A DNA stretch of 64,000 bases from Rhizophagus irregularis (taxonomy: Eukaryota), in the NCBI RefSeq assembly GCF_026210795.1, contig NC_089430.1:620001-684000 (forward strand). Direction: 5' to 3'. Both the position numbers and the translations under genes were made by a program. The notes beneath the pieces were generated by a model. The model saw only the letters and a list, made by a program, of their open reading frames with translations. It did no database searches and had not been told where the DNA came from. Position 1 is the first letter of the stretch. Every line of letters begins with the position of its first letter. Below are positions 4,440-56,297 of the stretch, piece by piece.

Positions 4440-5200
4440 ATCATTATTGTTATAACAATATCAAAATGATATCGTTTCGTTATATCAAAACGATATCATA
4501 TTAATATCGTATTTACTTTCTATTTTTCATTATTGTTATAACAATATCGAAATGATATCAATTTGATGTTTCATCAATATCGTTATGATGTCGATTAGAT
4601 AATTATAAAGTGATATCTTTACGATATCATATTGATATTGAATTAATGTTGGAACGATATCATATTAATATCGTATTTACTTTCTATTTTTCATTATTGT
4701 TATAACAATATTGAAATGATATCAATTTGATGTTTCGTCAATATCGTTATGATGTCGATTAGATAATTATAAAGTGATATCTTTACGATATCATATTGAT
4801 ATTGAATTAATGTTGGAACGATATCATATTAATATCGTATTTACTTTCTATTTTTCATTATTGTTATAACAATATCGAAATATTGATATGATATCGATTT
4901 GATGTTTCATCAATATTATTATGATGTTGATTAGATAATTATAAAGTGATATCTTTACGATATCATATTGATATTGAATTAATGTTGGAACGATATCATA
5001 TTAATATCGTATTTACTTCCCATTTTTCAAAAAATTCATTGTTGTTATAACAATATCGAAATGATATCGATCTGATATTTTTCAAATAAATATCTTTACG
5101 ATATTATTTTGATATATTGAATTAATATTGAAATGATATCATTGCAATATCATAATGATATCATTTGCAAATCGATATTGCCACGATATTTATTTAACAT
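4440..5200. repeat. GATATC-rich tandem repeat, ~164-bp unit, ~4 copies
   Basis: ACGATATCATATTAATATCGTATTTACTT recurs near 4490, 4654, 4818 and 4990. Confidence 0.85.
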
Positions 5201-9259: not shown

Positions 9260-10753
9260 TCATTTTAAAAACGAATTTTTAGTAATACCATTAATTTTCT
9301 TATGGTCTTTCCATTTAATATTACGAGCTTTCCATAGTTGTTCATAAATATTATGATGTAAATCAACTAAAAATGAAAGGAGTATATGTTTGATTAATTT
9401 TTTGTGAATTTTTGCGTCTTTGAACGGTAATAAGAGACAATCCGGGACTAGATTAATCAGGAGGCAATGTAATTCTGGTGCATCATAAATTGAATTGATA
9501 GGGGAATTGAAAGAAGTAAATATAGGAATATCAAAGTCGATATTGTTAATATTGATCTTTTCTTTATCCATGTTATTAATAATATATGATCGAAATTTTC
9601 TGTTCATGGTTTCTGAATATGGATTTCAAAATATCTATCGACTTTGGGCAAGTCCAAAAATGTTCATTAGATTCTGCAGCAGAGGAACATAAAAAACATG
9701 TGTCGTATCCATTAAGGATATCTGGATAATTCCGATTGAGAGCGTCCAACGTAGGTAAAGTATAATTTGAACATTTGATACGCCAACCAACATGTTTACT
9801 ATACGATTCACTTGTTACTTTTTGAAAGGGGTTATGATTGATCCATAATTGTGAAAACTCCCAGTTGATGATATGATTAATGGTGAATGATTTGAGTGCT
9901 TGCAAGGGTTTGAGTGAAATGTGACGTTCTAAGTTACGGAAGTTAATCAGTTTCTTTAATGTTTTCCTAATATTACGATCAATGATAGTATCATTGTTAA
10001 ACATGATATAACCTTTTTGTGCTTTGACGCCCTTTGGTGAAATTGAAATTATCCTATTGGAATCACATCCGTCTTTGGCCAATTTATCAGCTTTATCGTT
10101 ATATTCTACTCCTGAATGTGCCCTAACTTTCGTGAATTGTACCTGTAAATTCAATTCAATTATGATTTGTTGGACTGCCTGCCAGAGAATAATATTATTA
10201 ATCTTTTGCTTTCGTCTTGGTGTTAGCTTATAATTCAATAACGATGTGAAAGTATCGATTGTACATTGGCTATCTGTAAAAATATTAATTAAACTATTAG
10301 GTGGACAAACTATAAGACATGTTAATACTGCCATAATTTCAGCTCTAGTAGAACTGGGCCATTGTGTAGTTACACCAGAAAATTCTATATTTAAACTAGT
10401 ATCCGAAGTAAATATCCACCCAAAACCCATACGAGGATTATTATCATCTATTTTTAAAGAACCATCAGTATAAAATTCTAGATTTGTGAAAGAAGCTAAA
10501 TTATTAATTAAAATATAAAATTCATTAAAAATATCATTAGGTAATAATAAACCATTCACTAATCTATGATTAATGTTAGAAGGGATATATAAACGAGGGG
10601 TAATTGATTGTGAAGTAATAATTCTATTTCTAAATGAGGGGTCTGTTCTAATTTTGAAATCTTTAAAAGTGTCTGCGCGTAATTCACTGTCAGACTTATG
10701 TACAATAAAAATATTATTAAATCGATTATTATCTTTTTTATGTATATTAACGT
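9260..10753 (-). pseudogene. LINE ORF2 C-terminal half: RNase H and Cys/His finger, frameshifted
   Basis: FYTDGS...RAEIMAV...IFTDSQ...KVRAHSG...NDKADKLAK (RNase HI motifs); CFLC...ESNEHFWTC finger. Confidence 0.85.
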
Positions 10754-11301
10754 TGTTACCCCTAGTCACGTGTAGAGTTACAATTTACTACGCCAGAAGA
10801 TCATGTGGAAAATTAGGATCTACTGTGCCCAACTGTGCCAAGCCGACCTAGCCGCAGCCTATTTAGCCTATTATTTTTATTATATTTATTATATTAATTA
10901 TATTTAATATAATCGATATAATTATTTTATTTATTATATTTAATTTATTTATTATATTTATTATATTAGTTATATTTATTATATTAGTTATATTTCTTAT
11001 ATTTATTATATCTATTATATTTATTATATCTTTATATGTAGTAACTTTTATATAAATAACGTTGGTATTTTCCTTCGTTAAAAAGATAGTTCCTTCAGTT
11101 CGAATTAGTTTATCTTTAGTTCCATAATTCTTATTCTTGTAATTATAAAGTTCTATAATAAAGTATAACCTTTTACACTATAAACGAACTCCCTATTTTA
11201 AGCGTGTCTTGTTTGATTGGATTTCAGTCATAGTTAAACGTACTTAATCTCCCTGACTGCAAATCATAGTTAATCTATTCAACGTACCTAATCGGTTAAC
11301 A
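10754..11301 (+). repeat. 5' LTR
   Basis: TGTTACCCCTAG...CGGTTAACA; near-identical to 19746-20293 (2 differences seen by eye). Confidence 0.95.
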
Positions 11302-11574: not shown

Positions 11575-14500
11575 ATGCTCTTTTACAATTTATCTAAAGC
11601 AGAATTAAAGTCACATCAAAGAAAACATCGTAGAGGAAGAACAATCAACCAAAAAGAAGTTTACTGTATTCAGTGTTATCCAACAGATTCTATTCCAGCT
11701 GACAATATCCCTGACGGATTTGAGAAATTTTGGCTCTGGATTTCTATTCAGTACACAGCAAAACAATATACTGGAGCAACAGTAGCCGCTTTTAAAGTAT
11801 TAAAAACTGAATTCTTTATAACTACACAACTCAATACACTTGTCGGTATAACTACTAAGATCCTACAAAGTATAAAGTTTCGACAAATAAATACTTCTTT
11901 ATTAGAATTATCTTTTTATTTACATAAATTATTTGAATTAACAAACGGATTCAAGAGTTTACCAACCAATACTCAAGTGACCAACGCATATCAAATTTTT
12001 CATAATATACCAGTAAATAATAACACCAACATGAATGAAGGTCAGATGAAAGATCTTATGAAGTTAGTTTGGGGAACTGACCCAACTGATAATAATAACC
12101 CCAGAAATGTTGGAAACCTCTTGGAAAATACTTTGAATAATAATACAACTGCCATTACTACTGCGTTACAAAATAATCTTAATGCCCTCAATGCTCTTAC
12201 AACTGCCAACCAAAATCGTACAACATCTAAAGTTGTAGATGTTCCCTTTTTCTATGGGCGTGATGATGAAGATCCATACGAATGGTGTCGACTCTTTGAA
12301 GCTGCCTTTGCAGCTAATGGATGGCCAGATAATCGAAAAATTGCTTTAGCCGCTGGATTTCTTAAGGAAGCTGCCCGAGATTGGTATGAAGAGGATAGAG
12401 GAAATATCAACCAATGGCATGTAGATGACAATGCAAATAACTTTGATACCCGACTTATAAACTACTTTGCAACTGCTGCTCGAAGGAATCAGTGGACCAG
12501 AGAACTGCAAAATATTAAACAAGGAGACAATGAATCAGTAGAAAACTACTCCCGACATTTTAAGAAGTTGTTAAATAAAGCTACTCAAGGAGAAGCTTTA
12601 GCTGCAAGATACCAAATTAACTACTATATTAATGGTCTCAAGTCCTTTTTAGTTGGACAGGTAGTAATTGGAAATACTAATACTTTGGAAGCAACCATTA
12701 CCCGAGCCAAGTTAGTAGAATTAGGTGTAAATACTACTCTTTTAACTACAACACCTGTAACTACTAGTACTACAGAACCTATTCCAACTACTACTACTGT
12801 TAAACCAACTCCACAAGTGGATGAAATGGAAGCATTAACAAAACAAATGCAACAACTCGCTCTTAATTATGCAAATCTTTCATCAGTTTTAATGGTTCAA
12901 CAAAGCACTCCTCGAAATACTAGACCTAGACCTAATAATAATAACAATCAAAATCGTCAAAATGGTCAAGCCCCTACTCAGAATTCCTTTAATCCAAATA
13001 TCACTTGTTTCAGGTGTGGAAATGTAGGTCATATTTCCAGAAACTGCCAAATGGGAAGATATACCAATAATGGAAATATTAATAATAATAATAATAATCG
13101 CCCTCGCCAAAGAGCACCAGTTACACCTATTAATTATGCAGATGATGAAGCAGAAATTTACTATGATGAATATGAGAATGAATATGAGGAAGAATGGGAG
13201 GAAGAAGACGAATATGAAGCATATGTCACAACTCGTTCTAGATCTGTTCCATATGAGATATCCTCTCCTAGAGGAAAAAGAACAAGATTTTCAGAATCTC
13301 AAAAGGAAGACCAATTACGTACCCAACCTATTCCCCCAGTAACTCCTTCTACACCCATGGAAATGGATGCTACAGCAGAACCTTCTACAAAAAGAAAAGT
13401 AAGAACCAAAATGGTCCCTGCGCCTATTGAAAATGTCAATGAATTTGATATAGCTAAATATATTAGTGACCTTCCTTGTGGTCTATCTATCGGTCAAGCA
13501 ACAGCCCAACTTCCTGTTTACAGGAAAGGATTAATTCAAAGTATGAGGAGAAAGCGTGAAAAGATTGATAACAATAATTATATTGGAGAAAGTTACTATG
13601 GAGACTCCAACTCAGAAGAAGAAACTCCCACTACCGCTGCTAAATGTGAATTTCATATTAACCAACAACCAGTTATTGCAGTAATTGATAGTGGAGCTGC
13701 AGTTAGTATTATGACTACTGCCATGATGAAAACTTTGAAATTAACTATCGATGGACCTTCAGAATATGTAATTAAAACTGCCAATGGAACTAGAGTTAGG
13801 TCATTGGGAAAAATCCAAAACTTACCCCTAAAAGTCAGAAATTTAATTATTAAAACCAATGTTCAAATCATAGAATCAAGCGATAGTGTTTTTATTCTAG
13901 GAAATAACTGGATGAGAAAGGTAAATGCTGCTCTTGACTGGGACAAGAAGACACTAACTATCAGATACAATGGACGATCCACAACAGTCCCTGTGATTTT
14001 TACTCTCCCAAAACCTATTAAAATGAAGCAATCATTTGAGTATGATGACGAAGAAGAATATGAGTCTGAAGAGTTAGAAGAAGCTCAAATCTATATATCT
14101 GATTTTTCTGGTTATTCAACAGAAGAATCCCTTGAATTTAACCCATGGGAAAATGAAGTATCTCCTGCCCACCAAAATAATGAAGATGAAGAATTGGAAG
14201 AATCAAATCCTGCCATTTATTTAGCTCAAGCAGAAGTATATAGTGGAGAAAAAGTCAATCCAGACTTACATTTAGGACCGTTAGACTACCATCAACAAAG
14301 CCAATTTCAACAACTCTTGAGTGACTATGCAGATATTTGTGCTAAAAGCCAAACAGAAATTGGAAAAACAAATGTAATTAAGCACAAAATTATTACAAAA
14401 GATGCTACTCCCATCTTTCAACCACCCTACAGATGTAATCCTAAATATAGAGAGTTTTTACAAGGAGAAATCACAAGAATGGAAAGTCAAGGTCTTATAC

Positions 14501-16560
14501 GAAAATCAGCCAGCCCTTGGGCTTCACCTGTGGTAATTGTTGATAAAAAAGGAGGAGAAAAACGTTTATGCATAGACTATCGTAAATTGAATGCTGTCAC
14601 CAAAGCAGATGCTTACCCATTGCCTCGAATTGATGATATGCTTGAATCTTTTAGTAATGCAACATGGTTTACCACATTAGATTTAGCCAGTGGTTATTGG
14701 CAAGTAGCTATGGATTCAGCAGATGTTGAAAAGACTGCTTTTATTACTCCATTTGGACTATATGAATTTTTAGTAATGCCCTTTGGTTTAGCTTATGCGC
14801 CTGGAACTTTTCAATGACTAATGAATAGAATACTCCAGGAGTATCTAGGAAAGTTTGTGGCAGTATACTTAGATGATGTAATCATTTACTCAAAAGGAAC
14901 CTTAGAACAGCACTTGGATCACCTTAGACAAGTATTTGAAACTCTTAGACGAGCAAATTTGAAAATTAAACTTAAGAAATGTTACTTCTGTCTTGGAAAT
15001 ATTCATTTCCTAGGACATGTAGTCGGACGAGAAGGTATCCGGCCTGATCCAGAAAAAATTGAGAAAATTAAAACTTTTCCGGTTCCAACAAATCTAACAC
15101 AACTTCGCTCAGCATTAGGCTTATTCTCTTACTATCGAAAGTTCATCAAAGATTTCTCAAAAATAGCCAAACCAATGTTATTACTTTTAAAGAAGGAAAC
15201 TCCTTTTCATTGGACTGAGAAACAGCAAACTGCATTTGATTATTTGAAGGAAAGATTAGCTAAATCCCCGATCTTAACATACCCTGACTTTGAACAACCC
15301 TTCATTATTCATACAGACGCATCTGGTACTGGACTTGGTGCTGTGTTATTACAAATAAGAGAAGATGGAAAAGAACATGTAGTCGCTTATACCAGCAGAT
15401 CTTTAAATAAGGCTGAATGCAATTACCCTATAACCGACCAAGAATGTCTTGCGATAGTGTGGGCTATCAAACATTTCCAACACTACTTAGGATTAAAACC
15501 TTTCACAATTGTTACTGACCATTCTGCTCTAAAATGGTTAAAGACATCCAAAATCCCAAAAGGCCGCCGTGCGAGATGGGTCATGGACCTTCAACAGTAT
15601 GACTTTAATATTAAGCATCGAGCGGGAAAAGCGAACGCAAATGCAGATGCATTATCTAGAATGTTTGAAGAAGATAGCCAAACTCTTAGTTGTTTCATGA
15701 TTTCTATCGAAAAAGAAGGACAAATTAATGCAAATGAAAGTTCTACTCCAGTACACGAAGAGTACGATGCAGATTCAGAAGATGATTATACTGATAGACC
15801 TGCTCAAAGAGCTATTGATTTGTTAAATCGTTGTGATAATCTAATATATGATATGCAAAGCTACATTGAAGAACGATCTGAAAATAACTCTCCTATTAAT
15901 ATTGTTTCAGGAATTCGATATGATTTTGACAACCCCAATGGACCTCATCCAGAAGATTGTATTTGTAAAGTTTGTCAACCTCCTCCAGCCCGTTCACCAT
16001 CACCATATAGTTGTTGTAACGAAATTATTTGTCAGTGTAATGAAGATAACTATTCGATTGATACAGAAGAATATAATAATTCGTGGGAAAGACAAATTTA
16101 TGGAGATGCATTCTCTGATTATTCAGAAGAAAATCAGATTAATATTGAAGAACATATCGCCTGGACCATGTGTGGTATGAACCGTCAAGCTCTAGAAAAT
16201 ATGTATTTGGAAAATATAAAAATTAAACAAGTAATCGCCGGTCAACAAATCAATCATGGTGGAAGTCGATGTACTATGGAATGTGATACAGAAAATCATC
16301 ACGTGTATACATATTGTACGATGTGCAAGAAGAATCTATTTTATGGAACTACTATGCACGACTGTATCATTGGATTCACTTTAGGAAAAATTAGGCCAGA
16401 TATGAATCCCAAATTCCTTATTAATAATCAATGGTGGAAAGAACCTCAAGCAGTACAACTTGAAAATAATATCAATTATCTTAAATATATCGAACGATTA
16501 ATGAATGATTTACCAGTTTACAAAGCATCTTTGGAACCTTTCATTGCCAATTTGGACTAA
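11575..16560 (+). pseudogene. Gag-protease-RT-RNase H polyprotein with one in-frame TGA (14815-14817) and a Cys-rich tail
   Basis: Gag core; CFRCGNVGHISRNC zinc knuckle; IDSGA protease; LDLASGYWQ, MPFGL and YLDD RT motifs; TDASG and TDHSAL RNase H. ORFs 11575 and 14821 are in the same frame. Confidence 0.92.
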
Positions 16561-16654
16561 AAGTCCACCTCTTTTACATATTATAATTAACAAAGTATCA
16601 AAGGGTGAAAGCGAAAGTGTCCGCATCGTGACGAGACAGCCTAAATTTTCAAAA

Positions 16655-17916
16655 ATGGATATTGAACATTACAATAACATATATAATTATTTAAAATATA
16701 ATCAATTACCTTTTACATTAAATAACCAACAACAACAACAAATTCAAAAACAATCAGTATATTTTATTATCAAAAATAATTTCATTTATAAAAAGGATAA
16801 AAAGAGACAAAATAATTTACTACGAGTAATTAGAAGACATGAATTGGAACCAGTTCTTTTTATGTTCCACAACGATCCTACTGCTGTGCATTTTTCAGTT
16901 GACACAATGTTTGACAAAATTCAATCAAGATATTATTGGCCACAAATGTACAATGACATCAGAGCTTATGTCATGTCATGTGACTCTTGTCAACGAAGAG
17001 GAAAACAAAAGACAAAGTTACCTTTACATCCTATTCCAGTAGAAAGTCCTTTCATCAAATAGGAATAGATTTTGTAGGACCTTTACCTATAACTAAAAAT
17101 GGAAACAAATATATAATTACAGCAATGAATTATTTAACAAAATGGCCAGAAGCACGACCTGTAAAAGAAGCTACTGCAGAACAAGCTGCACTTTTTATTT
17201 ATGAAGAAATAATTTGTCGACATGGATGTCCAGCAAAAATATTATCAGACCAAGGAACTCATTTTAGAAATCAAATAATTGAAAAATTAATGGAAAAATT
17301 TCAGATAAAACATTTATTTTCAACACCATACCACCCTCAAACAAATGGACTTGTAGAAAGATTTAATCGTACTTTATCAGAATCTTTAGCAAAATTATCA
17401 ACAGATCATATTGATAATTGGGATAATTATATTGCACCAATTTTATTTGCTTATCGTACTACAAAACATTCGACTACAAAAATCGCACCTTTCTTTTTAT
17501 TATATGGACGAGATGCTAAACTACCAACTGATTCATTAGAAAATAATGGAAATCCAACTTTAATAAATCACATAGAAAATTTAGTTGACCAACTACCTCA
17601 AGAAATCGAAATAGCTAAGACAAATATTGAAATATCTCAACAAAAACAAAAAGAACGACATGATAGAAAATTACGTCATCAAATAAAATTTTCTATTGGA
17701 GATAAAGTCTTATATTATGACGCAGCAAAAGAAAAGCAATGGACTGGAAAACTAAATCCAAAATGGAAAGGACCATACTATATTCATCAAGTTGGAGAAA
17801 AAGGAGCGTACAAATTACGAACTATAGATGGAAAAGTCTTACGAACTCCTGTAAATGGAAGTTTATTAAAATTGTATCACGATCGACAAAATTGGGAACC
17901 AATAATTGTAGTATAA
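16655..17916 (+). pseudogene. Gypsy integrase as a separate ORF, frameshifted near 17050
   Basis: H-H-CDSC zinc finger; IGIDFVGP, SDQG and NGLVERFN DDE core; WKGPY motif; ATG at 16655 after the pol stop. Confidence 0.9.
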
Positions 17917-19745: not shown

Positions 19746-20293
19746 TGTTACCCCTAGTCACGTGTAGAGTTACAATTTACTACGCCAGAAGATCATGTGG
19801 AAAATTAGGATCTACTGTGCCCAACTGTGCCAAGCCGACCTAGCCGCAGCCTATTTAGCCTATTATTTTTATTATATTTATTATATTAATTATATTTAAT
19901 ATAATCGATATAATTATTTTATTTATTATATTTAATTTATTTATTATATTTATTATATTAGTTATATTTATTATATTAGTTATATTTCTTATATTTATTA
20001 TATCTATTATATTTATTATATCTTTATATGTAGTAACTTTTATATAAATAACGTTGGTATTTTCCTTCGTTAAAAAGATAGTTCCTTCAGTTCGAATTAG
20101 TTTATCTTTAGTTCCATAATTCTTATTCTTGTAATTATAAAGTTCTATAATAAAGTATAACCTTTTACACTATAAACGAACTTCCTATTTTAAGCGTGTC
20201 TTGTTTGATTGGATTTCAGTCATAGTTAAACGTACTTAATCTCCCTGACTGCAAATCATAGTTAATCTATTCAACGTACCGAATCGGTTAACA
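19746..20293 (+). repeat. 3' LTR
   Basis: Direct repeat of 10754-11301. Confidence 0.95.
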
Positions 20294-21306
20294 ACGTGTA
20301 AAGTGATTGTAAAATTAGAAAAATAGCTAATAATGCATTTGGGACAAACGTCACCAATATAGAATGAATTATGAAGTTCACAACCAGTGCAAGGTGTAAG
20401 TAAATTAGGTGTGGAGTGAGGAGTTATATTATGATTAAGGATTAGACATATCTTTAAAGGGGATATGATGTTCTAAATAGACCTTTGGTGAATCTCCAGG
20501 AAAATGTGATTTTTCCAAAATTTTTCCATAAACTATACATGACACTCGTGGCGACCAAAAAGCAGCCCATTGATTTTTACAAGGAACACTATGATTATTA
20601 CATTTAATTATTTTAGGCTGTGGAAATCCAAGATCAGGTGACATATTATCGGATTGAGTCATAAATTGTAAACGATTTGTTGAAGGATTTAATACGATAT
20701 TATCTTTAAGAAAATCATACCATTTAGGTCGACGCCCTCGATTATTTTTTAATAATTTCTTGATCTCTTTCCAAGTTTTAAGAAAAGCACCGTCATTGCT
20801 AATTATTTGATCCAAGAAGAAAATATTCTTGTTCTTCAGTGATTTAACAAAACCAAAATATTTTTTGGGGTCAACGATGAAATAACTAATTGGATGTAAA
20901 CCACCAGTAACATTATATTTAAAATTTGTATTAAAGGATAAGTTATAGAAATGGAAAATGCATAATAGATTTTCTAAACGATTAAAATGTCTAGAAGGTT
21001 TGTGAAAATATTTAGTCATTTCACTTATATCATTTGTCCAAAGTTTACATTGTGATGTTAAAAAAAGGAATTCTATAACTTTTGACGTGACTGGGTTATT
21101 GATTTGTGCATTTAATAAGGATGCTTGGGAACGCAATTGTGAATCCCAAATATTCAAATATTGGGGTATATCGGATTATGTACCACCGAATTAAAAAAGG
21201 ATTTTGGTAATGATAGGGAGTGTTTAAAAATTGAACGTAAAATTCTATTGAATTTGTTACATTTGTTTGGTTCAATAAAAATGTGTTGCATTAAATATTC
21301 TATCCT

Positions 21307-25456: not shown

Positions 25457-26453
25457 GTGACATATATTATGTTTATTTAAATCTGAAATTTTTCAAAAAA
25501 AGAGGGGGGAGGACGTTAAACTAATTATTAATTTGGAGCGGCCTAATTAATAACTTAATGTCTAAAATTTTATTTGCATATTTTTACAGGATTTTCAATA
25601 TCAGGTGTCAATTATGCATACTACTGTGCCGTACTACTCATATAAAAAGTCTCTGCGTATAGCTCATAGTAAAAAAATTTTTCGCCACCTGACCCCTATA
25701 TATATTTCTGGATCCTAATGCACCATTTGCAAGAAAATTGGAATATTTGACAAAAAAAAAAGCAAAATTTGATTTTAATTGACAATGTTATAACAATGTT
25801 GTGAAATGTTACAATAATATTACATTTGAGGTGTAAAGTAGCATTTTCCCAAATTTTCATAAAATTTGCTAAATTGGATAATGTTGTAACAATGCTATTC
25901 CAAAAAATTGCTCAGCGTAATGCAGCATTTTCCATAATTTCCTACCATTTTTCAGGAAAATGTGAAATTTGCATTTTTTGAAATTTGGACAAGGTGCTCC
26001 TTTGACCTGTGAGATATTGCAAAAATCAAATGTGATGATTTATATATATTTAATAATTAAATAAGTTACAAAAAAAAAGAATTATTCAAATTACAAACTA
26101 AAAAACTTGTAAAATATTCTACTACTTTAACCTTAGTGTTTAAATAATTCTAATAAAAATAAAGAGAATTTGAATATTTAATAATTTATAAGAAATAAGA
26201 ATCATTTAAATTACAAACTAAGAAATTTGTAAAATATTTTACTACTCTAACTTTAGTGTTTAAATAATTCTAATAAAAAAAAAATATACATATAAAAAAA
26301 ATTTGTTAAATGAACAATAACATCAAATCATATCATTTAAAAAAAAAGTTTTTAAAAATAATTCAAATTAAATCTTTTTCATTATCTGAATAATTAAAAA
26401 AAAAAAATTAATTTCATATAAAATTATTTGCAAAATTATTTTATTTTTCTATA

Positions 26454-29400
26454 TTACATACCTTCATTAATAATGATACAATCTCTCAAACTTCCGCTTT
26501 CTTGAATTTCATTCACTTTTCCACTAGTAGAATGACTTAAATAATATACATGTGTATCTTCATTTTCAAGAATTTTATTCAATTCTTTACTAGTAAAACT
26601 AAGTAAGCGACTTGTATGGCATACTTGTGGATGAGATTCGGTAATTAAATTGTTACATTGAATTGATGCATTTATAAATTCCATAATATTGCTTTTTAAT
26701 TCTTCATTTATATCACTTATATCACTGATTTCAGGATTAAAAATCCAATTTTTAATGATATTTTTAACTTTTAATGCAGATGGCCTTTCTAATGGATCTT
26801 CATTCCAACATTTTTTCATTAAATCTATATAGCATTGTGGAGTATTTTCAATAATTTCAGGACGTTCACCTTTACAAATACTTAAACTAAGTTGAATATC
26901 ATCATATTTTCTGTCACTAAATGGTGGAACTCCAGATGTAAATTCCCACATAATCATAGAAAAACTATATATATCACTAGCTGGAGTATATGATTTACCT
27001 CTTAAAATTTCAGGTGCCATAAATGGTATAACACCATAAATACTATCTTTGTTTAAAAATGATTCCAAAGGTTGACATAATCCTAAATCACTAATATAAA
27101 TTTCATCATCTTTATTTTCATCATCTTTTAAATTATTTTTATACTTATTATGTTTTAAAATATTACCATCATGAAAATCACAATGAATAAGATTTTGTTC
27201 ATGTATTTTATGAAGTCCAGAAATAATTTTATATAATATATATAATCTCTGTTTCCAATTATTTTTAATTATTTTTGTTAAATTTTCTCTTAAATTGCCT
27301 TTATTTGCATAATCCATTATTGCCATATATTTCGAATCTGGATTTCTTGTAAATCCGTACAAGTTAATAATTTCAGTTGAATCTAAACAACTTTCATGAT
27401 ATTTCCACTATATAAAAAGTTAAAAGATTATTAAAATAAATTTATATAAATAAATTATAATTTAAGTTTAAAAAAAAAAATAAATAAAATGTTATAAATA
27501 ATATATATCTTACTTCTTTTAAAAATTTACTTAAATTTTCATTTAAATCTTTGGGACATTTAAGAACTACTTCCATATCACCGTTTTCTTTTAACCAAAT
27601 AGCTTTATAAACACTACCAAATCCTCCTTCATTAAGATATTCAACATCCTTAAATTTTTTATAAGGAATCCATTTTAATTTTTTTTCTAAAATAAAATTA
27701 TCCATAATTATATTTCCACTTTTTCCAAATCTAAATAATTTTAAATAATTAAAATTCATTAAAAAATTACGTTGAAATCGTTGAAATATTAAATTTTAAA
27801 AAAAATAACATTAACACTTACCCTAAAATTTAATAAGAAATTTTAATAAATGATAAATTTTAATTTATTTTTTACATAAATAGTAACGTAATAATAACCA
27901 AAATTTGTAACTTACTAACTAAAGTAAATAAACAAATATAAAGAATTTAGTTAATTAAAATTATTTGTGAATATTAAATACAGTAAATATACAAGGATAG
28001 CAATATCTAATAACTTACAACCTAAATTAAATTAGAATCTAGTTAGTTTAAATTATATGCAAATATCACATAAATATATAATAATAAAATTACTTGTTAC
28101 TTACAAAAATCTAAATAAATTATCAATCAATTTTTTTTAATTAATTTAAATATATATTGAATATAATAACAAAATTGAATAAATAATTTATTACAACTTA
28201 CGCTCTACATTATTAAATAACAAATTTAGTTTAAATTATATGTGAATATGATATAAATACGTAATAATAGAATTAATAAACAACTTACTTCCTATATTAC
28301 CAAATAATTTATAAATAAAGAATTTAGTATAAATTATATTTAAACATCAATTAATCATATAATGACAGAATTAAATTAAGTAACTTACGAACTATATTAT
28401 TAAATAAAGAATTTAGTTAGTTTAAATAATACATACATATGCATAACAATACAATCAAATAGAATAGTTTATATAACTTACAATCTAAAATTATTAACGA
28501 TTATTTTTAAATAAAGGATTTAATCAATAAATCATATACAGTCATCATATAAACAATGTAATAACATAATTTATAACTTACAATCTATAAATAAAGAATC
28601 AAATTAGTTTAAATTATATATAAACATTACATAAATATATAATAATAGGATTACTCACTTTCTATATTTTTGAATAATTTTTTAAACGAAAAATTTAGTT
28701 AATTTAAATTATATGTAAATATGAATTAAATAAATAAATTATAACTTACCATCTATTAAATGACGAATTTAATTTTTTTTTTTCGAATTATTTGTAAGTA
28801 TTTTATAAAGAAAATAACTACATTTAACCGTGAGGAAAATTAACCGGTGGGCAGAATTACACAATTCCAAGTCAACTCATTACCAGCATTAACATTAATT
28901 CCTTCATTTACCGGTTAATTTTCCCCCTGGCTAAGATCCTTATATAAATATGTGATAGACAAATTACCTTCTAGATTATTGATTTTTTTTTTTAAAAAAA
29001 AAAATTTAGATTAAATCATATGTAACAGGTATTATATAAATACATAGAATAAAATAACTTACTCTCTATATTATTAGCAATATTTAAATAAAGAATTCAG
29101 TTAATTTTAGTTAGTTTAAATAATATTATATAAATGTCAAAATAAAATTAAATAAATAACTTATAACTTACTAACTAAAATAAACAAATAGTATTTTTTC
29201 AAATAGAAAATATAGTTAAATTAAATACAAATGCTATACATGTAATAGAATAAATAAATAACTTCTAACTTACCAACTAAAACATGTAATAATTTGCGAA
29301 AAATTTAATTAGTTTATATTATATGAGAATGCAATAAAATATATAATGGTAGAATAAAATAAATAACTCACTCTCTAGTATATTATTAAATAGTTTTTCA

Positions 29401-32400
29401 AAGTAAAGAAGTCAGTTTAATTTATAGTATGTATTATAAATATACAAATACAAATAACTCACGTGCTGTATTATTAAAGAACAAATAATTTAGTTAGTTT
29501 AAATTATATAAATATCATATGTAATAATAGAAATAAATAACTTACAATCTAAATAAATTGTCAGATATTTTAATAAAGAATTTGTTAGTTAACATAAATT
29601 TAAATGTTATGCAAACGTATAATAATACTATCGATAAATAAGCAACTTACTCCCTATATTATTAAATATTTTTTTTTAAATAAAAAATTTAGTTAGTTTA
29701 AATTATGTATGTGTAAATATCAAATAATATATAATAATAAAATCAAATAAATAATTATTACTTACGCACTATATTACAATTTTTTAAATAAAAAGTTTTA
29801 AATATATTAGTGAATATTATATAATAATAGAATAAATAATTAACTTATAACTTACAAACTAATACAAGTAAATTGTTCAAATAATTTTTATAATAAAGAA
29901 TTTCGTTAATTTAAATTATTTGTAGATATATAAATAGAATTAAATAAATAACTTGTCACTTACGTGCTATATATTAAATATTTTTAGATAATTTTAGTTA
30001 GTTTAAGTTACGTATAAATTATGGTAAAAAATAAAAATAAAAATAACATACGTGCTTATTATAAAAATAATTTTTAATAAAAAATTTAGTTAATTTAAAT
30101 TCATATAAAAAGTATGCAATAATAGAATTTAATAAAGTAACTTACGATCTATATTATTATAATAAAGAATTTAGTTTAATTTAAATTATATATGATAGTA
30201 TTAATGGTATGATAATAGAATTAAATAAATGATTTATAACTTACCATCTAAAAGAAATTGCCAAATAATTTTTTAATAAAGAATTCAATTAATTCAAATT
30301 AAATATTTGTAAATAATAATAGAATTAAATAAATAACTCACTCTCTATTATTAAAAAATTGAAAAGTTAATTTAAATTATTTACAAGTATTATATAATTG
30401 CATTATAATGTAATAATTAAATAAATAATTTATAACTTACCAACTAAAATATTAATTTTTTAAATAAAGAATTTGATTATTTAACTGAAATTATACGTAA
30501 ATATTATTTAAATACATAACGATAGAATAACTTACTCTCTATATTATTAAAATAAAAATTTAGTTTATAATTAATTTAAATAATCACGTAAATATTTTAT
30601 ATAAATGTATAATGGTAAATTAAATAAATGACTTATAACTTACCAGCTATAATAAATTTCCAGATAATTTGTTAAATAAAGAATTTCGTTAGTTTAAAAT
30701 ATATAATATATGAATATATGTAAAATTTCATATAAATATAATAGAATTAAATTAATAACTTGCCAACTATAATAAAATTACAAAGTGATTATTTTAAATA
30801 AGAATTTCGTTAGCTTATATTATATACAAATATTCTATAATGAAATTAAATAACTTACTTCCTATATTATTAACCGTTTTTAGAAAGAATTTAGTTAGTT
30901 TAAAATATATGTAAATATCATATATCATAAAGTCCGCCCTTTTTGCACATAATGCTAGCCAAGAACATCGTAATGTAGCCCAAAATTGCGAACTTTATGA
31001 TAGATCTGTAATAATCAAATCAAATAAATAACTTACTCCCTGTATATTATTAAATGATTTTTAAATAAGGAATTTAGTTCAAATTATATAAATATTATAT
31101 AAATATGCAATAATAGGAATAAATAAATGACTTATAACTTACAATCTAAAATAAATTACCAAAGTTAGTTTAAATTATTGTAAATAGTGTATAAATATAT
31201 ATGTATGATAGAATTAAATAAATAACTTACCAACTATAATAAACCACCAAATAATTTTTAGACGGAAAATTTAGTTAATTTATTAAATTACAATATTAAA
31301 TATATATTTAAAATAATAAAATTAAATAAATAACACATATTTAACTTACGTCCTAAGAAAATTACCAATATTTATTTGTGATTAGTTTAATTATATTAGA
31401 TATCATATAAATAAGTAGTAATAAAATAAAATAAACAACTCACTTGCTAAATCATTAAACCGTTTTTTAAAAAATATTATAAATTTTTGTAATAAGGGCA
31501 GCGTAATATATTACGTAACGCCCGTAATCCAACAACAAATTTCGGGTGATATCAGCGTAAGATAGGTAACCAATTAAAATATAATATAATTATATATCAC
31601 ATGATTTTATTATGTGTCCAATTCTCGTAATAAATGTCAATGTTCCTAATAAAATTAAATAAATGACATATAACTTACATGCTATATTATTTTTTAATAA
31701 TAATAGTTAGTTCAAATTATATATGAAGCGTAATAATGGAATTAAATAAATAACTATAACTTACTATCTAAAATAAATTACCAATTAATTTTTTTTTAAA
31801 TAAAAAAAAATTCAATTAGTTTAAATAATATGTATATATCATATATAAATATACAATTGATAGAATTAAATAACTTGAAATAAACTCACTTTCTACATTA
31901 TTAATAATTTTTTAAATAAAAAAATTTAGTTAATTTAAATCACATGTAAATATTTCATAAATATGTAATGGTAGAATTAAATAAATAACTTACCAACTAA
32001 AAAAAATTATGTAAAATAAAAAAATTAATTAGTTAAAGTTATATGTGAATATTATATAAATATATGATAATAAAATTAAATAAATAATTTATTACGTACC
32101 AACTATATAAATAAATTACCAAATAATTTTTTTTTTAAATTAAATATTTTTTTTTCTTTTAGTATATTAAAATATTTAATAAATAAAATTAAATAAATAA
32201 CTTACATGCTATATTATTAAAATAAAGAAATAATTAGCTTAAATAATGTCGTTAAATATGTAATAATGGAATTAAATAAATGACTTATTACTTACACGCT
32301 ATATTATTAAATATTTTTTATATAAAGAATTTAATTAGTTTAAATATTATATAAATATTTTATAATAATATTAAATAAATAAGTAGAATAACTCACTCTC

Positions 32401-33203
32401 TATATTATTAAAATAAAGAATTTAGTTAGTTTAAATTTATATGTAAATATCTTAATAAACATGTACTAATAGAATTAAATAAATAACTTGCAACTTACCA
32501 ACTAAAATAAATTACCAATAAATTTTTCATTTTTTTCTAGTTAGTTTAAGTTATATACAACTTAAAGACATAGATAACATATAACTTACACCCTGTAATA
32601 TTATTATTAATTAGATAAAAACATTATTACAAAAATACATGATGTAAAAAAAATTAATTATATTACTTACAATCTAATTATTTAAATAAAGAATAAAATG
32701 ATTAGTTTTGAAATATGCGCAAAAATTAAATAAATAATAAAATTAAATAACTTACCATCTATAACATCATTAATGAATGAATAATTATTTAAACAAAGAA
32801 TTTTGTTATTTGAATATTATGCAAAAAATATGGTAAAAAAATAAATAACTGATAATTACTTACTAACTAAAGTATTATTAATCATGATTTAGTTATTTAG
32901 AATATGATAAAGATAAGTAATTTTCAATTATTATTCGAATTATATTAACTTACGATCTAATTATTTAAATGATTATTAAATTAGAAATAATTCAAATTTA
33001 TATGTGAATATTACGTAAGGTAAAATAATATGAAAATTGTTTAAAAAATTATTTCAATATTTTATTTACCTTCAGATTCCTTGGTACTGGTACTTGAAAC
33101 TAGTTTTGGTATTTATTACAAATTCGTTTCAAAATTTAGAATATTCTAATTTAAATTAAATATTCATGCTATTTCTTTTACCTTCATCGTTACCATTAGC
33201 CAT
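26454..33203 (-). CDS. TKL-like protein kinase with 54 predicted exons (50 micro-exons of 1-6 nt), ~457 aa
   Basis: Exons 33182-33203, 33070-33099, 50 micro-exons (32956 down to 27822), 27514-27730 and 26454-27407 total 1374 nt with no internal stop. Kinase motifs EGGFGSVYKA, VVLK, HCDFHDGN, SDLG, MAPE, SDIYSF. The kinase exons are high confidence; micro-exon inclusion is predicted. Confidence 0.8.
28824..28934. mobile_element. ~110-bp MITE inside a micro-exon intron
   Basis: TTAACCGTGAGGAAAATTAACCGGT ... ACCGGTTAATTTTCCCCCTGGCTAA imperfect TIRs. Confidence 0.7.
30925..31000. mobile_element. 76-bp hairpin MITE inside a micro-exon intron
   Basis: TA|TCATAAAGTCCGC ... GCGAACTTTATGA|TA. Confidence 0.65.
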
Positions 33204-34215: not shown

Positions 34216-34935
34216 AGGGGGGAAGGGGAAAGCGAAAGGAAAAAGGGAAACGGAAGGGAAAGGTAGGAAAGGGTAAACGAAGGGAAGGGTAAGACGAAGG
34301 GGAAAGGTAAGACGAAGGGGAAAGGGTAAAACGAAGGGGAAAGGGTAAGACGAAGGGAAAGGGTAAGACGAAGAGAAAGGGTAAGACGAAGAGAAAGGGT
34401 AAGACGAAAGGGAAGGATAAAACGAAGGGGAAAGGGTAAAACGAAGGGGAAGGGTAAAACGAAGTGGAAAGGGTAAAACGAAGGGGAAGGGTAAAACGAA
34501 GTGGAAAGGGTAAAACGAAGGGGAAGGGTAAAACGAAGGGGAAGGGTAAAACGAAGGGGAAGGGTAATACGAAGGGGAAAGGGTAAGACGAAGACGAAGG
34601 GGAAAGGGTAAGACGAAGGGAAAGGGTAAAACGAAGGGGAAAGGGTAAAACGAAGGGGAAAGGGTAAAACGAAGGGGAAAGGGTAAGACGAAGGGGAAAG
34701 GGTAAACGAAGGGACGAAGGGGAGGGTAAGACGAAGGGGAAAGGGTAAGACGAAGGGAAAGGGTAAGACGAAAGGGAAGGATAAAACGAAGGGGAAAGGG
34801 TAAGACGAAGGGGAAAAGGTAAGACGAAGGGAAAGGGTAAGACGAAAGGGAAGGATAAAACGAAGGGGAAAGGGTAAAACGAAGGGGAAAGGGTAACGAA
34901 GGGGAAAGAGAAAGCGAGAGAAGGGAAGGGGAAAG
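34216..34935 (+). repeat. Purine-rich minisatellite, ~18-19-bp unit GGGGAAAGGGTAA(A/G)ACGAA, roughly 35 copies
   Basis: Directly visible tandem repeat; it generates the overlapping F/P/L/S/Y-rich ORFs on the minus strand. Confidence 0.95.
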
Positions 34936-41900: not shown

Positions 41901-42712
41901 GAAAAGAATAGAAAAAAAAAGTTCATGGTTTCATTGTTTTAAAAAATGAAAGATCTGCAGATAAACCATCGTAATACAAAAGTATACAACTGATACGTTA
42001 TACGTTACCGCAGTTCATGAAAAAAATCTCACAAAACAAGTTTTTTTTTTTTTACAATAAAAACAATATTTCGTATTCTTATCTCTTTTCTTATCTTTTT
42101 TTTCATTTAACCCAATTTGTTCTTTTTATTTAAATGTTTACAGGAGAAAAAAAATTGTTTCAAGATTGATAAAAATTTCTTGATATATTCAAAATCATGT
42201 TTTTTAATTATTAATTCGTGATTATTCTTTATTATTTGTAATCCTGTAAATATATTATATGATAATATAATAGTGATCTAATTTATGATTTATATAATTT
42301 TCTCACGTATATGCGTAATGCGTTACATGCATTTCAATGCGTTATATTAAAGTTTTTTGAATGATGATGAATTATTATTATTGTTTATTATTATTATTAT
42401 TATTTTGATATTTACAGTAATCTCCAAAATAAGGAAATTGAATAAAAGTGCATGTCAATCAATCAATTTATAGTTCATTCATCGTTTATCAATTTTCTTC
42501 AAAGATAATCTTTACCGAATATATAAACGTTAAAATATTACTTATAAAATTAATAATGATGAAAATAGTTATAAATAGGCCTTACAAAAGACCAAGGGTT
42601 TTTTTTTTTCCTCAAAAACAATAAAAAAATATTAAAAATAATTAACTTTTGATCATATTAAAAACAATACAAAAAAAAACAAAACAATCCCCAAATTTTT
42701 TTAATAAACGTA

Positions 42713-43357
42713 ATGGAATCAGTCTCATTTTCATCGGATCATACTTCTTATGATTGTTGTATTTATCAGTATAATCAATATCAACAACATCAACAATACC
42801 AATTATACCAACATTGCCAACAATATCAATTAAATCAACATTATCAACAACCTCAACCCCAACCCCAACTTCAATACCCTCAGCATCCTCAACATCAACT
42901 GCCTCAACAACCCCAACAACTTCAACAACTTCAACAATTTCAACAATTTCAACAACCTCAACAATTTCAACAATTTCAACTACCCCAACAATTTCAACAA
43001 TTTCAACAAGAGCCTCAACAAGAGCCTCAACAACCTCAATATGTTCCTCAACAACCTCAACAGCCTCAATATGCTCCTCAACAACCTCAACAACCTCAAT
43101 ATGCTCCTCAACAACAACAACATTATCAACAACAACAACAACAACAACAACAACTACTATTCCAACATCTTACCTCCAGCACTATGACAACAACGGTAAT
43201 TACAAATGACGGCAATCGGTACGATCTGGAGGCCGTATCGATCACTAATGGAGTGGCTAATTCAGCAGCCACAATATTAAATAATCAAGAAAATGTGAAT
43301 ACCGTTTATGTAAACGGTATTCTATATAATCACTTTCATTTTATTACCTTTTTTTAA
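42713..43357 (+). CDS. Gln/Pro-rich low-complexity hypothetical protein (214 aa)
   Basis: Single ORF with non-repetitive termini; CAA repeats vary in codon frame; TATAAATA near 42570. Confidence 0.5.
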   Translation: MESVSFSSDHTSYDCCIYQYNQYQQHQQYQLYQHCQQYQLNQHYQQPQPQPQLQYPQHPQHQLPQQPQQLQQLQQFQQFQQPQQFQQFQLPQQFQQFQQEPQQEPQQPQYVPQQPQQPQYAPQQPQQPQYAPQQQQHYQQQQQQQQQLLFQHLTSSTMTTTVITNDGNRYDLEAVSITNGVANSAATILNNQENVNTVYVNGILYNHFHFITFF

Positions 43358-44373
43358 ATTTTTAAATTTTTTTATTTTTATTTTAATTTTTTTTTATTTT
43401 ATAAATTAATTTATTGTATTTTTTATTTCAAAATAATAAAAATAAAAATTTCGTTTATTTAAAAACAAGCCAGTATTTTTTGAACTGTAAACTGTAATTC
43501 TAACTGAAATTGTTAACGTATTACCAAAATAGCTACAGTAATGCCTAAAAACTGCGCCACAAATCGATCATGTGAAAAATTCTTTTAACCAAAAAAAATG
43601 GAAAAATTTCACAATCGGCAAAACGTTTATATATGAGAATACAGCGCGTAAATATTTTAGGAATCTGAAAGGAAAGATTTTTTCTTTTTTTGTATATTTT
43701 CTCTTTGAAAAATTATGAATCTTTCTTTAAAAAAAAACAGGTTAAATTTTATTCTCCACTATGTATAATACGACCATAATTACCCAAATAAATTCAAAAT
43801 CCAAGCCATTGTATCTTTGAGTATGCCAAATACTTATGAGGCACTAATTGTTTGATATTTGGTAATTTTCAAAAAAAAAATTAAATAATTTATTTGCAAC
43901 TTGTGATTAATTTTTCACTTTTGCATCGCCGCTTCACCTTACATAAGTCACATGATGTGTTACACAAATTTTTTGTATTGTTCAATTACTGGCCATTAAC
44001 TATTTATTATAATTATTTATATGATAAACTAATTCTAACATTTATTTCAAGAAAAACAAATTATACTTAGAAAGCTGTTGTATCATTATTATTATGAAAA
44101 GAAAGGATGGATGGTAATTATCGTTATAGGAATTAAAAAAAGAGAATTCCATATACACTTGATTAGGTGATTCATTATTTGTGTAGCTATAACTGATTTT
44201 GAGCTTTTTTCCTATATCTTACACTTCTTAGTAGTTTAACAATTTCCAGATAATTACAAGGTTTTTATGAATTCTAATTATAATTCAAAGTGATACCGTC
44301 TATTTGTGTCACCGGTACCCACGTCCATCATTTGGACTATTAGTTTAGGTATAGAATGAAATTTAAATAAAAT

Positions 44374-45404
44374 AAAGAAGCGCCAAGAGAGTTTTATAAG
44401 TTATATAATCAATGGAGTTATAAGGCAGAATTTTTATCCTTGGACATGTGTCGATATTATAGATTTAATAATTCAATGGAAAAAGTTGATTGGTGTCGTT
44501 CAATCAGAATTATCATGAAAGCTTTTAATGATGAAAATACAGATAGGAATAATTTTGATAATGCTTATAAAGTCAAAAATTTTTTGGAAATTTTACCTGT
44601 GGCGAATTTATTAAATAAGCGTAATCCAGAATTATATCAAAGTGGAAGATGTATACGTTGTAATTACACAATTGAAACATGGACACATATCTGGATATGT
44701 AATAAAGCAGATACGTCTATCATTCAAATAATTAATGCAGCTTTTGAAATTTTAAAAGCTAAGTTAGATGAAAAAGATTTTAGGATACATTATAATTACC
44801 ATGCACGTTTACTACGTATTTTGAATGAAAAGCCGAGAGTGGTTTTTAATGGTAGAATCTTTCATGAAGCCATTAAAGGCATAGTTAATGAAAGGTTGTT
44901 TTTGGAGATGGAGGATAAATTTTTTAAGGACGCTATAGCAAGTTTTGTAGAGGATATACATGATATGGCCAGAAAATTCATGTGGAGTGAGCGTTGTAAA
45001 AGTTTTAATGAATGGGAAATAAAGCAGGGCATAACGAAACAAATGAAAAAAAGTGAGTAAACTGTATAAATCTTCATTACCTAGCTTGGGTTATGATGAG
45101 AAAAAGAAAAAAAAATTTATTTCTGATGTTTTGCAAAGGTGGACAGGGTATTATATTAATAATGATATAGCAGCTAAAAGTATTTGGTATGAAATAGGTG
45201 TAGAAGATTTATGGAAATATAATAGTTTAGTTACATTTAGATCTTCTAATTATGCTTCTAATTTTAGTATTCTAGATTAGTTCGGTTAGTATAGTTTTTT
45301 TTTTTAGATAGATGCTTTATTAACAGATGTTTACGTCTATATTATAATAGGTTGTTTTATATAATTATTATAATATTAATAAAGTTTTAAATTGGAAAAA
45401 AAAA
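44374..45404 (+). mobile_element. 5'-truncated LINE (3' end of ORF2 plus poly(A))
   Basis: CIRC...ETWTHIWIC finger; AATAAA at 45378; poly(A) from 45396; 15-bp TSD AAATTTAAATAAAAT (44359-44373, 45405-45419). Confidence 0.85.
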
Positions 45405-49247: not shown

Positions 49248-50786
49248 TTATATGCCTTCATAAACACCATGTATATTATCAAATTCCGTTATTTTAACCC
49301 CTTTAGCTTTAATACTATTCAATAACATTGATTCCTCATCATCCCATTGTCTATTCAAATTAATCAAACCAAGAATTTTTAAACTATTGTTACTTCTTTC
49401 AATATAATTTAAAACAACTTTAAGAAAGTCTAACTTAATAACGTTATTCAAACTAATTATTTCAAACTTATTATGACAATTTTTTAAAAATTCCTTGAAT
49501 TGGAAATTCTTATCACGATTATAGTAATAATAAATAGAAATTTTACTAATATTAATAGGTATATTATTTGATAAATTTATAAAAAATTCAGCATCATATG
49601 TAAAAATATAAAAATTTAATATTCTTGTTCTTAAATTTCTAAAAAATGGTAACACTAAACGATTAAAACTTAAATAAGTTCTTATTTCTAAAAAAATAAG
49701 ATTTGAACAATACATTGATATATTTTCAATAGAAAGAATTGTCGGATTTCTAATTAATAATCTTTGTAATGATGCACCTAAATATTTGATCATTAATGAT
49801 GTGACATTAGCATCCCAACTAATGCGTACAAATGATAATTCCTTGAGCTTAAATTGAGCAAATTTTAAAATCTCACATTGATCTAATGATATACCTTCAC
49901 AATTATCAAATCTTAAATACTTCAAATTATATAAATTATTAAAACTTTTTAAACTAGCATTACTAAAGTTAGAATTTGTGAATTCAATATTAACTAAAGA
50001 ATTCTTTTGAAATTCTAAAGACAAAAGAATATTATTTAATAAAGAATGACAATCCAATATCTTAAATTTTTTAAGTTTGTTTTGCTCTTGAATAATTGTA
50101 CAAATCTTTTCAAAAGTAGTAATATCGACAAAATTTTTATAAAGATTAATTATTAATTCTCGCAAATTATTCGCCATATTACTTAAAAATTCTTGTTCAA
50201 TTTTATTATTACTAGTTGTGCCATTTAAATTTAATGATAACGAATTTAATTTTGTTAAATTTGATGTGAAATTTTTAACATTGAAATTTTTAAACGCTTC
50301 TCCATAAAATAAATATGTCGAAATATCTAATTGTTTGATGTTTTTACTTTGACGTAAAATTGATTGATGAAATATTGGAATAATATCATATACTTTATTA
50401 TAAGGAATCAATAAACCTGAACAACATCTTACAAGACAACTATCAATTACGTTATCTATTGTAACATAATCATAGTTTTCCAAATATTTCGGATATTCAA
50501 ATAATGGTTTGCATTCTTCATCCAAATTAATATTATTAATTTGGTTTAGTTCTAGTTTATTTTTCAATTGTAAAATTTCTTCTTTATTAAAACATAAAAT
50601 TAAGGTCGTGATTATCGAGTACTTTTCTTCAGTTATATTTATAAAAGGATTTGCATAAAGTAAAGGAATCGTTGATTTACACCAAAATCGATTAACTAAT
50701 AAACAATTAAATAAAGTTGAATGATTATTTTTAAGATGTTGTAAAATGTAAAAAATACAATCATCTGTTAAATAAGGTAAAGTCAT
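49248..50786 (-). CDS. F-box-like / LRR (RNI-like) protein, paralogue 1 (512 aa)
   Basis: LPYLTDDCIFYIL...CLLVNRFWCKSTIPLLYANPF N-terminus; LxxLxL repeats; intact single exon. Confidence 0.85.
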   Translation of the reverse strand: MTLPYLTDDCIFYILQHLKNNHSTLFNCLLVNRFWCKSTIPLLYANPFINITEEKYSIITTLILCFNKEEILQLKNKLELNQINNINLDEECKPLFEYPKYLENYDYVTIDNVIDSCLVRCCSGLLIPYNKVYDIIPIFHQSILRQSKNIKQLDISTYLFYGEAFKNFNVKNFTSNLTKLNSLSLNLNGTTSNNKIEQEFLSNMANNLRELIINLYKNFVDITTFEKICTIIQEQNKLKKFKILDCHSLLNNILLSLEFQKNSLVNIEFTNSNFSNASLKSFNNLYNLKYLRFDNCEGISLDQCEILKFAQFKLKELSFVRISWDANVTSLMIKYLGASLQRLLIRNPTILSIENISMYCSNLIFLEIRTYLSFNRLVLPFFRNLRTRILNFYIFTYDAEFFINLSNNIPINISKISIYYYYNRDKNFQFKEFLKNCHNKFEIISLNNVIKLDFLKVVLNYIERSNNSLKILGLINLNRQWDDEESMLLNSIKAKGVKITEFDNIHGVYEGI

Positions 50787-56136: not shown

Positions 56137-56297
56137 TTTGAAAATTTAGGAAGGAAAGAAAGTTTTTTTACGGAGTATCGGAGTAAATAAGTCATTATAA
56201 GCCTAATTTTGGATATCACACGGTTGTACATAAATTTTGTAACATTCAAGTGAACCCTGTAATAGGTAACACTACCTGCTACCGTAATGATTTTCTC

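Follow-up and report, generated by a model that had tools for sequence, protein, structure and literature searches.

Mini-exons the size of a codon, which number in the tens and for which alternative splicing was reported, occur in the nank family of the ascomycete Tuber melanosporum (PMC4986451, PMC13449251). The micro-exon genes (MEGs) of schistosomes encode secreted proteins and have symmetric exons of 3-81 bp and introns of up to 5 kb (bioRxiv 10.1101/2023.06.21.545858). Intron gain by tandem genomic duplication has been described as well: duplication of an exonic AGGT segment leads to one intron, and an imprecise form of this event adds coding nucleotides (PMC3443670; a second source is PMC4974935). 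For the high-copy Ser/Thr/Tyr kinase genes of the arbuscular mycorrhizal (AM) fungus Rhizophagus irregularis a role in perceiving the environment was proposed (PMC8647823). The present analysis concerns a stretch of 64,000 nt of R. irregularis DNA (NCBI RefSeq assembly GCF_026210795.1, contig NC_089430.1, positions 620,001 to 684,000; hereafter the window). This is AT-rich fungal DNA with, on its minus strand, a protein kinase gene that harbours a long array of microexons. A literature search turned up no description of such arrays in AM fungi, a result on which subscription papers and supplements could bear.

The array consists of 50 phase-1 microexons ahead of the kinase domain and has likely grown, with a probability of about 0.7, by repeated duplication and exchange of exon-centred cassettes. 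Such a cassette would comprise the 3' part of one intron, the tiny exon and the 5' part of the next intron. Its exchange may have proceeded by crossover or conversion within the core that the introns share. The evidence consists of the common layout of the introns and their kinship, the linkage between intron flanks and exons, the phase 1 of the exons, the open frame, the splicing of the ordinary kinase introns, the removal of intron 51 and the presence of similar arrays on three related kinases, each of which was established. By length the array is 97% intron, and its elements are the following.

27731..33069, minus strand: microexon array in which 51 introns sum to 5188 nt and 50 exons to 151 nt, about 50 predicted residues
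27916..32956, minus strand: 48 three-base phase-1 exons at ~100-nt spacing, the first at 32954-32956, the last at 27916-27918
28105..28110, minus strand: six-base exon inside the array, by model
27822..27822, minus strand: one-base exon leading from phase 1 to phase 2, needed by the frame and in line with the RNA run-on
30647..30763, minus strand: intron with GC donor, by model
30055..30145, minus strand: intron with AAG acceptor, by model
28753..28967, minus strand: intron 40, lengthened by an insert whose inverted arms (24-25 nt) lie at 28824-28848 and 28910-28934, putatively MITE-like (miniature inverted-repeat transposable element)
30862..31036, minus strand: intron 20, lengthened by an insert whose inverted arms (24-25 nt) lie at 30920-30943 and 30982-31005, putatively MITE-like
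31447..31678, minus strand: long intron 15 with an insert of ~130 nt, no convincing terminal repeats

Of the microexons, 48 measure 3 nt, a further one 6 nt and another 1 nt; the 51 introns are 74-232 nt long (median 95) and about 85% AT. Their donors are GTAAGT (39), GTGAGT (7) and GTAAAT, GTACGT, GCAAGT, GTATGT and GTAATT (one each); the acceptors are TAG (47), CAG (3) and AAG (1). The original prediction, made from the sequence alone, had listed a GC donor after 30764-30766, an AAG acceptor before 30052-30054 and GTACGT, GTATGT and GTAATT donors, and had counted TTG seven times and ATT and AGA five times each among the exon triplets; all of this proved correct. Its range of 27823..33069 encloses 50 of the introns, while the 51st, at 27731-27821, lies beyond it. 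On the minus strand, the region 27700-33200 contains 50 matches to the splice signature of a 3-nt exon, of which 48 are exons of the model; for the other exon lengths of 1-12 nt it was found at most twice per strand in this region. The inserts in introns 15, 20 and 40 are GC-richer, and two of them resemble small non-autonomous transposons; the array is unbroken.

The complete gene model has 55 exons with 1389 coding nt and an open frame of 462 aa, which is 76 residues more than the public model. Outside the array it comprises the following parts.

33182..33203, minus strand: predicted first coding exon, ATG, 22 nt, ending in phase 1, by model
33100..33181, minus strand: ordinary 82-nt intron without the array layout (score of 0.006 against the array introns)
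33070..33099, minus strand: second exon (predicted), 30 nt long, rich in Ser, Thr and Glu, phase 1-1, by model
27514..27730, minus strand: first kinase exon with FGKSGN motif, glycine-rich loop and catalytic Lys region (Pfam PF07714, E 7e-4)
26462..27407, minus strand: main kinase exon (Pfam PF00069, E 2.7e-32; PF07714, E 1.2e-31)
26363..26385, minus strand: last coding exon, to the stop, by model; the joint 26385/26462 is present in record 1 of sequencing run X1

The open reading frame (ORF) 26454-27407 (minus strand) encodes a protein kinase according to Pfam, and the domain scores are 112.7 and 110.4 bits versus Pfam cut-offs of 31.7 and 23.1. The predicted N-terminus of the gene is polar and acidic, and its C-terminal 386 aa are identical to the public R. 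irregularis model POG60025.1 (P0128). This protein has the glycine loop as well as the Lys, HCD, DLG and APE motifs. Kinase relatives numbered 1067 at E<=1e-30, and every named match in the best 120 was from Rhizophagus; searches of the genome contigs and viral contigs collections with the kinase query gave no match. The second exon resembles the stretch ahead of a gap in paralogue models, and N-termini like that of the first exon were found in the paralogue models P0017, P0021, P0027, P0077, P0088 and P0117.

Similar arrays were sought by a pattern scan of metagenome contigs, which reported at least 112 stretches and from which 109 loci were stored. Eighteen AT-rich loci (GC 0.14-0.22) were chosen by eye as similar, one locus (L047) served as a contrast and the other 90, mostly short-period repeats and satellites, were dropped. 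L047 (3930 nt, minus strand) harbours ~30 three-base exon-like units, and its AT-rich introns are mutually unlike (score 0.06).

It could be argued that the array is a degenerate satellite, lying in one large intron or in non-coding DNA before a gene whose start is the annotated Met, and that the triplets are not exons at all. Indeed, POG60025.1 begins inside the kinase exon and leaves the array out, and protein searches found no database protein with the microexon segment in phase 1. However, all 51 units retain GT or GC and AG at their ends while their interiors diverge, and the triplets show a coding signal. The flanking exons set phase 1, and 49 of the 50 microexons are symmetric (phase 1-1). 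The codon-position log-likelihood of the window array is -189 in phase 1 versus -204 and -200 in the other phases, and for 160 triplets of the 18 other loci it is -654 versus -678 and -679; taken alone, 8 of these 18 loci, mostly short ones, favour another phase. In their native order the exons of the window give no stop, versus 3.2 expected when the order is shuffled (P 0.013), and 152 junctions in 22 runs of the 18 other loci likewise give none, versus 5.4 (P 0.0015); read in phase 2, the junctions of the other arrays give 29 stops. None of the 48 three-base exons has C as its middle letter, the wobble position in phase 1. Phase 0 was rejected on flanks and composition, though it is likewise stop-free. 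The exons of the array are thus in phase 1, each straddling two codons, and are not codons. A unit of intron plus codon, as had been proposed, is therefore not supported here: flanks, codon-position composition and stop avoidance all place the exons in phase 1. In this phase each new unit brings in one residue and can alter a neighbouring one. The related proposal of one intron and one residue per event holds for one intron and a net gain of one residue per unit, with the provision that the added residue can change its neighbour.

The frame points in the same direction. Without the one-base exon a first stop is met at residue 74, and skipping of the whole array gives a frameshift with a stop at residue 24, while retention of the one-base exon alone gives an open frame of 412 aa. 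The one-base exon is therefore obligatory and the other 49 are frame-neutral. By computation, the predicted frame stays open in 43 of 49 single skips and in 1132 of 1225 block skips. Triplets recur in the array (55 identical pairs versus 29 under column shuffle), but not above phase-1 triplets from local coding sequence (43.5 pairs, P=0.14); TTG is the commonest triplet both in the window (7/48) and in the other loci (18/160).

Reads and contigs from four of the 24 listed sequencing runs (X1, X2, X15 and X24) were mapped on 26300-31250 only; X1 and X2 are RNA by guess only, though both skip introns. None of the 24 runs is recorded as RNA, which says nothing about expression. Contigs of X1 and X2 match the exon 27514..27730 and skip the kinase intron 27408-27513, both with 0 differences (the joint 27407/27514 is present in X1 record 5 and X2 record 21), and X1 skips 26386-26461 too. 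Record 6 of X1 (273 nt) is exact on 27618-27735 and continues with 155 letters that have no place on 26300-31250. Intron 51 is removed, because this record matches to 27735 and then leaves the stretch. The gene model predicts run-on to exactly 27735, whereas skipping of the whole array predicts 27732 (two letters), and a run-on of at least five letters is given by only 20 of the 1176 pairs of last two exons. Thirteen raw polyA reads of X24, as well as X2, reach 27734 and do not reach 27739. The RNA fits inclusion of the last microexons only, that is the last two or three. At the start of the kinase exon 75 X24 reads have a loose end with an agreement of 0.63 and unlike the gene; its 30-letter consensus, read by hand, is a stop-free Asp/His/Cys-rich stretch that probably stems from paralogues. 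The DNA run X15 carries the array in long pieces with 0-13 substitutions and some indels, and because of these long pieces with few differences an assembly artefact is disfavoured. Stop avoidance and codon-position bias in phase 1, the frameshift upon whole skipping and the RNA run-on to 27735 leave the satellite explanation very improbable.

The introns of the array are related to each other. Similarity was computed with the splice signals removed, on the 48 of 51 introns of <=130 nt. Mean pairwise identity was 0.639, versus 0.595 for a dinucleotide shuffle and 0.598 for a 12-nt block shuffle, and 38% of the pairs lie above the 99th percentile of the block shuffle, the top pair reaching 80% only. 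Three layout motifs occur in 22, 22 and 30 of the 51 introns versus 0, 0 and 2.8 after shuffling, a contrast that is partly circular as the motifs were derived from the array introns themselves; in the remaining 117 kb of the window (both strands) they occur 1, 0 and 28 times. Six ordinary kinase-gene introns and 54 AT-rich GT..YAG segments, collected ab initio from the rest of the window, served as background. The ordinary introns scored 0.006-0.163 against the array profile and the segments 0.037 on average, with a maximum of 0.144. The leave-one-out score of the 40 central array introns was 0.233, and 39 of them exceeded the segment maximum; these 40 had been picked after introns 1-6, 50 and 51 had scored only 0.10-0.17. 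When 107 introns from 8 other arrays were included in the tree, 47 of the 48 window introns formed one clade (support 0.81), and for 45 of the 48 the nearest neighbour was inside the window. The shared layout beyond the splice consensus, as described in the original prediction, is thus borne out by identity, motif counts and clade, and the array introns were found to be closer to each other than to a small background of kinase-gene introns and window segments.

Such likeness might be the result of convergence, without common descent, of short AT-rich introns under strong splicing selection around 3-nt exons. The narrow difference in identity (0.64 versus 0.60), the overlap of the shared core with the branch-point region and the single ordinary intron scoring 0.163 agree with this. 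The introns of L047, an equally AT-rich array with single-codon-like units, are however unrelated (0.06), and the layouts of the window array and the other arrays differ, with scores of 0.24 within and 0.10-0.15 between arrays. Furthermore, intron identity within the other arrays is 0.61-0.95 versus exon identities of 0.11-0.56. It is highest in L091 (0.95, 3 introns), L094 (0.91, 7 introns) and L053 (0.83, 12 introns), where exon identities are 0.33-0.52, and the three neighbouring introns of L091 share an internal 11-nt doubling while flanking different exons. Arrays with neighbouring introns that are 83-95% identical look recently copied. Identities of up to 0.95 cannot be convergence, which makes this a very improbable explanation. 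Of the growth by tandem duplication that had been proposed, common descent by duplication stands (layout, the clade of 47 of 48 introns, introns 83-95% identical elsewhere), while stepwise growth has left no visible trace in the window array.

The nature of the copied unit was approached through the linkage between intron ends and exons. Among 38 introns of the window, similarity of the 3' 30 nt tracked similarity of the downstream exon (rho 0.135, P 0.002) and not that of the upstream exon (P 0.18), while the 5' 30 nt tracked the upstream exon (rho 0.106, P 0.016) and not the downstream one (P 0.40). The 107 introns of 8 other loci showed the same for their 3' 25 nt (downstream exon r 0.34, P 0.001; upstream P 0.97) and for their 5' end (exon before P 0.045; crossed test P 0.90). 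In addition, 6 of the 7 GTGAGT donors follow an exon ending in A (P 0.003). A classing of intron ends into A and B types (P 0.0003) relied on motifs picked once the exons had been seen, and does not count as independent evidence. The unit looks exon-centred rather than made of intron plus exon, its intron 3' end tracking the exon that follows and its 5' end the exon that precedes. A half-intron, exon and half-intron would be the moving unit, because linkage of ends and exons is expected from exchange points in the intron core.

The simplest form of unequal crossover, and the one originally proposed, would add a whole intron and the following whole codon in each event. It accounts for the shared layout, the clade of window introns, the near-identical neighbours in L091 and L094 and an excess of similarity at lag 2. 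This excess (z 2.8, 0/1000 permutations, 1 of 15 lags) came out of the suggested check for higher-order periodicity and is no proof of a two-unit repeat; lags 3 and 8 were low. Simple crossover is at odds with the phase 1 of the exons. Moreover, whole-intron similarity tracks the upstream exon (P 0.0007) and not the downstream one (P 0.24), while the intron 3' end tracks the downstream exon. Similarity does not decay with distance along the array (Mantel r -0.03, P 0.28), and in most other loci adjacent introns are not closer than the array mean. This version of the duplication is considered unlikely. The lack of distance decay and the star-like tree of the window introns, in which no small clade has support >=0.95, would suit introns that were inserted singly into an existing coding stretch by a mobile intron-generating element or intron transposition, their likeness being that of the element. 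The very many look-alike pieces in X15 (8012 contigs placed, 2329 of them fitting two places) would suit this too. Yet insertion at every third base and always in phase 1 is left unexplained, the intron ends are linked to the adjoining exon, ordinary introns of the same genes are without the layout and array lengths differ (18 microexons in the complete array of L002 versus 50 in the window). Insertion by an element is therefore held to be quite improbable.

Exchange of exon-centred cassettes between any two units would also wipe out positional order, and the array would be old or well mixed, with the inverted-repeat inserts arriving later. All 50 exons are presumably joined, probably by intron definition because the introns are ~95 nt and 39 of the 51 have consensus donors. 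A number of points weigh against growth by cassettes. The tracking of the upstream and not the downstream exon by whole introns is one, and the linkage between flanks and exons could partly be splice-signal compensation. Mean intron identity in the window is just 4 points over the shuffles, the ordinary kinase intron at 0.163 falls within the low end of the array range, the intron background is small (6 introns and 54 segments) and not genome-wide, and distance decay and a supported subclade are both absent from the window array. RNA support spans the last two or three microexons only, the X1 record being judged by its match coordinates; X24 reads at 88% likeness are mostly paralogues, likeness of >=99% being found in 119 of 2379. 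Skipping at the locus was not observed, as reads cannot be placed on 3-nt exons, and the matches listed for one DNA run gave no difference in unit number at the locus. Finally, a kinase was linked in only 3 of the 109 stored loci (3 of the 18 AT-rich arrays).

In these three loci (L002, L010 and L030) the array continues into a related kinase exon (44-68% identity, tblastn pieces); the phase is 1 and the frame is open. Many public paralogue models have their start at the kinase exon or close to it, or pass straight to it from a Ser/Thr/Glu-rich exon. The public R. irregularis model P0133 matches the first kinase exon at 97% identity and extends across the intron-40 insert; it repeats the phase-0 order of the triplets at 25 of 25 tested residues (shuffled mean 6.4), which is the wrong phase. 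The Gly/Ile/Leu/Met-rich N-termini of P0133, P0004, P0026, P0031, P0066 and P0139 look like arrays misread in phase 0. Ser-Lys is found right before the FGKS-type motif in 14 of 156 stored proteins and is possibly a misread one-base exon. Trp makes up 17 of 152 residues in the other arrays, a 7.6-fold excess relative to kinase sequence, while the window segment has 2 of 51; the excess may stem from a vocabulary of GG- triplets and was not counted toward binding. The GC-rich loci L037 (91-1259) and L049 (minus strand, 907-1279) contain 89-95-nt tandem units of a GTAAG..YAG intron-like piece and a variable triplet; they have one layout in common and belong to another organism. The 16 triplets of the L099 array (minus strand) give a Gln/Lys/Leu-rich reading in phase 1, and AAC recurs among them.

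With regard to function, the preferred though tentative view, given somewhat less than an even chance, draws on analogy with the Tuber genes: the array would provide a high-copy signalling kinase with a variable segment at its front. Its length and sequence can change at the DNA or RNA level without loss of frame because the exons are symmetric. A wider and rather doubtful speculation is that AM fungi carry an undescribed diversity generator: a kinase subfamily with a hypervariable Trp/Asp/Arg-rich N-terminal recognition segment built from 3-nt cassettes. It would be reshuffled at the DNA level via the conserved intron core and varied by RNA skipping, and would form an immune-like repertoire missed by gene models. 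Should skipping or reshuffling be demonstrated, fungi that have long been regarded as asexual would have in it a source of protein diversity. The splicing of fifty successive exons of 1-6 nt, each too small for recognition by itself, poses an extreme test for the spliceosome. The arrays further offer an instance in which mass gain of introns by duplication can be counted, and compared across the many Rhizophagus strains already sequenced. Another consequence is that public models of the model AM fungus give wrong N-termini for a kinase subfamily, in the region that would carry specificity.

Other features of the window were recorded on the side. Retrotransposon-like gag-pol ORFs with frame breaks lie at 11575-17916 (motifs, by eye), with a second partial copy at 62811-63895 at the window end. 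Fragments like non-LTR (long terminal repeat) reverse transcriptase/RNase H elements occur at 9260-10784, 20435-21175 and 44371-45060. Identical ORFs with a 9-bp repeat are located at 10863-11177 and 19855-20169, and an ORF with Gln/Pro/Tyr-rich repeats at 42662-43357. Two intronless paralogues of ~520 aa (49248-50852 and 54607-56145) appear F-box/leucine-rich by eye and gave no Pfam match at E 0.001. A purine-rich 18/37-bp satellite (34222-34908) lies just past the kinase 5' end, and tandem repeats of 186, 92 and 164 bp are found at 1603-2848, 663-1090 and 4489-5080, respectively.

Comparison with known systems shows partial resemblances. MEG microexons form most of the coding sequence of their genes, while the microexons of the window gene contribute 151 of 1389 coding nt and are separated by introns of 74-232 nt. 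The window gene shares with the schistosome MEGs its runs of symmetric short exons, which can be as small as 3 bp; unlike them it has uniform 3-nt exons, homologous introns of 95 nt and a kinase domain. As in intron gain of the AGGT type, duplication creates a new intron. In the window gene, however, existing intron halves and a microexon would be copied dozens of times, and an exonic origin of the AGGT type is not indicated: the array introns resemble one another and are about 85% AT, and the adjoining exons are 3 nt. The gene shares the PF07714/PF00069 domain and Rhizophagus paralogues with the high-copy kinases of R. irregularis, and the accessible part of the account of their expansion does not mention a microexon array (PMC8647823). 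With the Tuber nank genes it has in common that it belongs to an expanded signalling-type family of a mycorrhizal fungus and has tens of codon-sized exons (48 of three bases here). The nank genes are ascomycete NLR genes with reported alternative splicing, whereas the window gene encodes a protein kinase of Glomeromycotina; its exons are in phase 1, one of them, a single base long, is obligatory, its introns are homologous, and intron flanks are linked to the exons. Only kinase families match the two kinase exons in Pfam, with no NACHT or ankyrin domain, and such domains are excluded from the remaining 68 predicted residues because these are too few. By this comparison the window gene resembles the nank architecture without being a member of that family. 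The kinase expansion was already known, and codon-sized mini-exons are known from Tuber.

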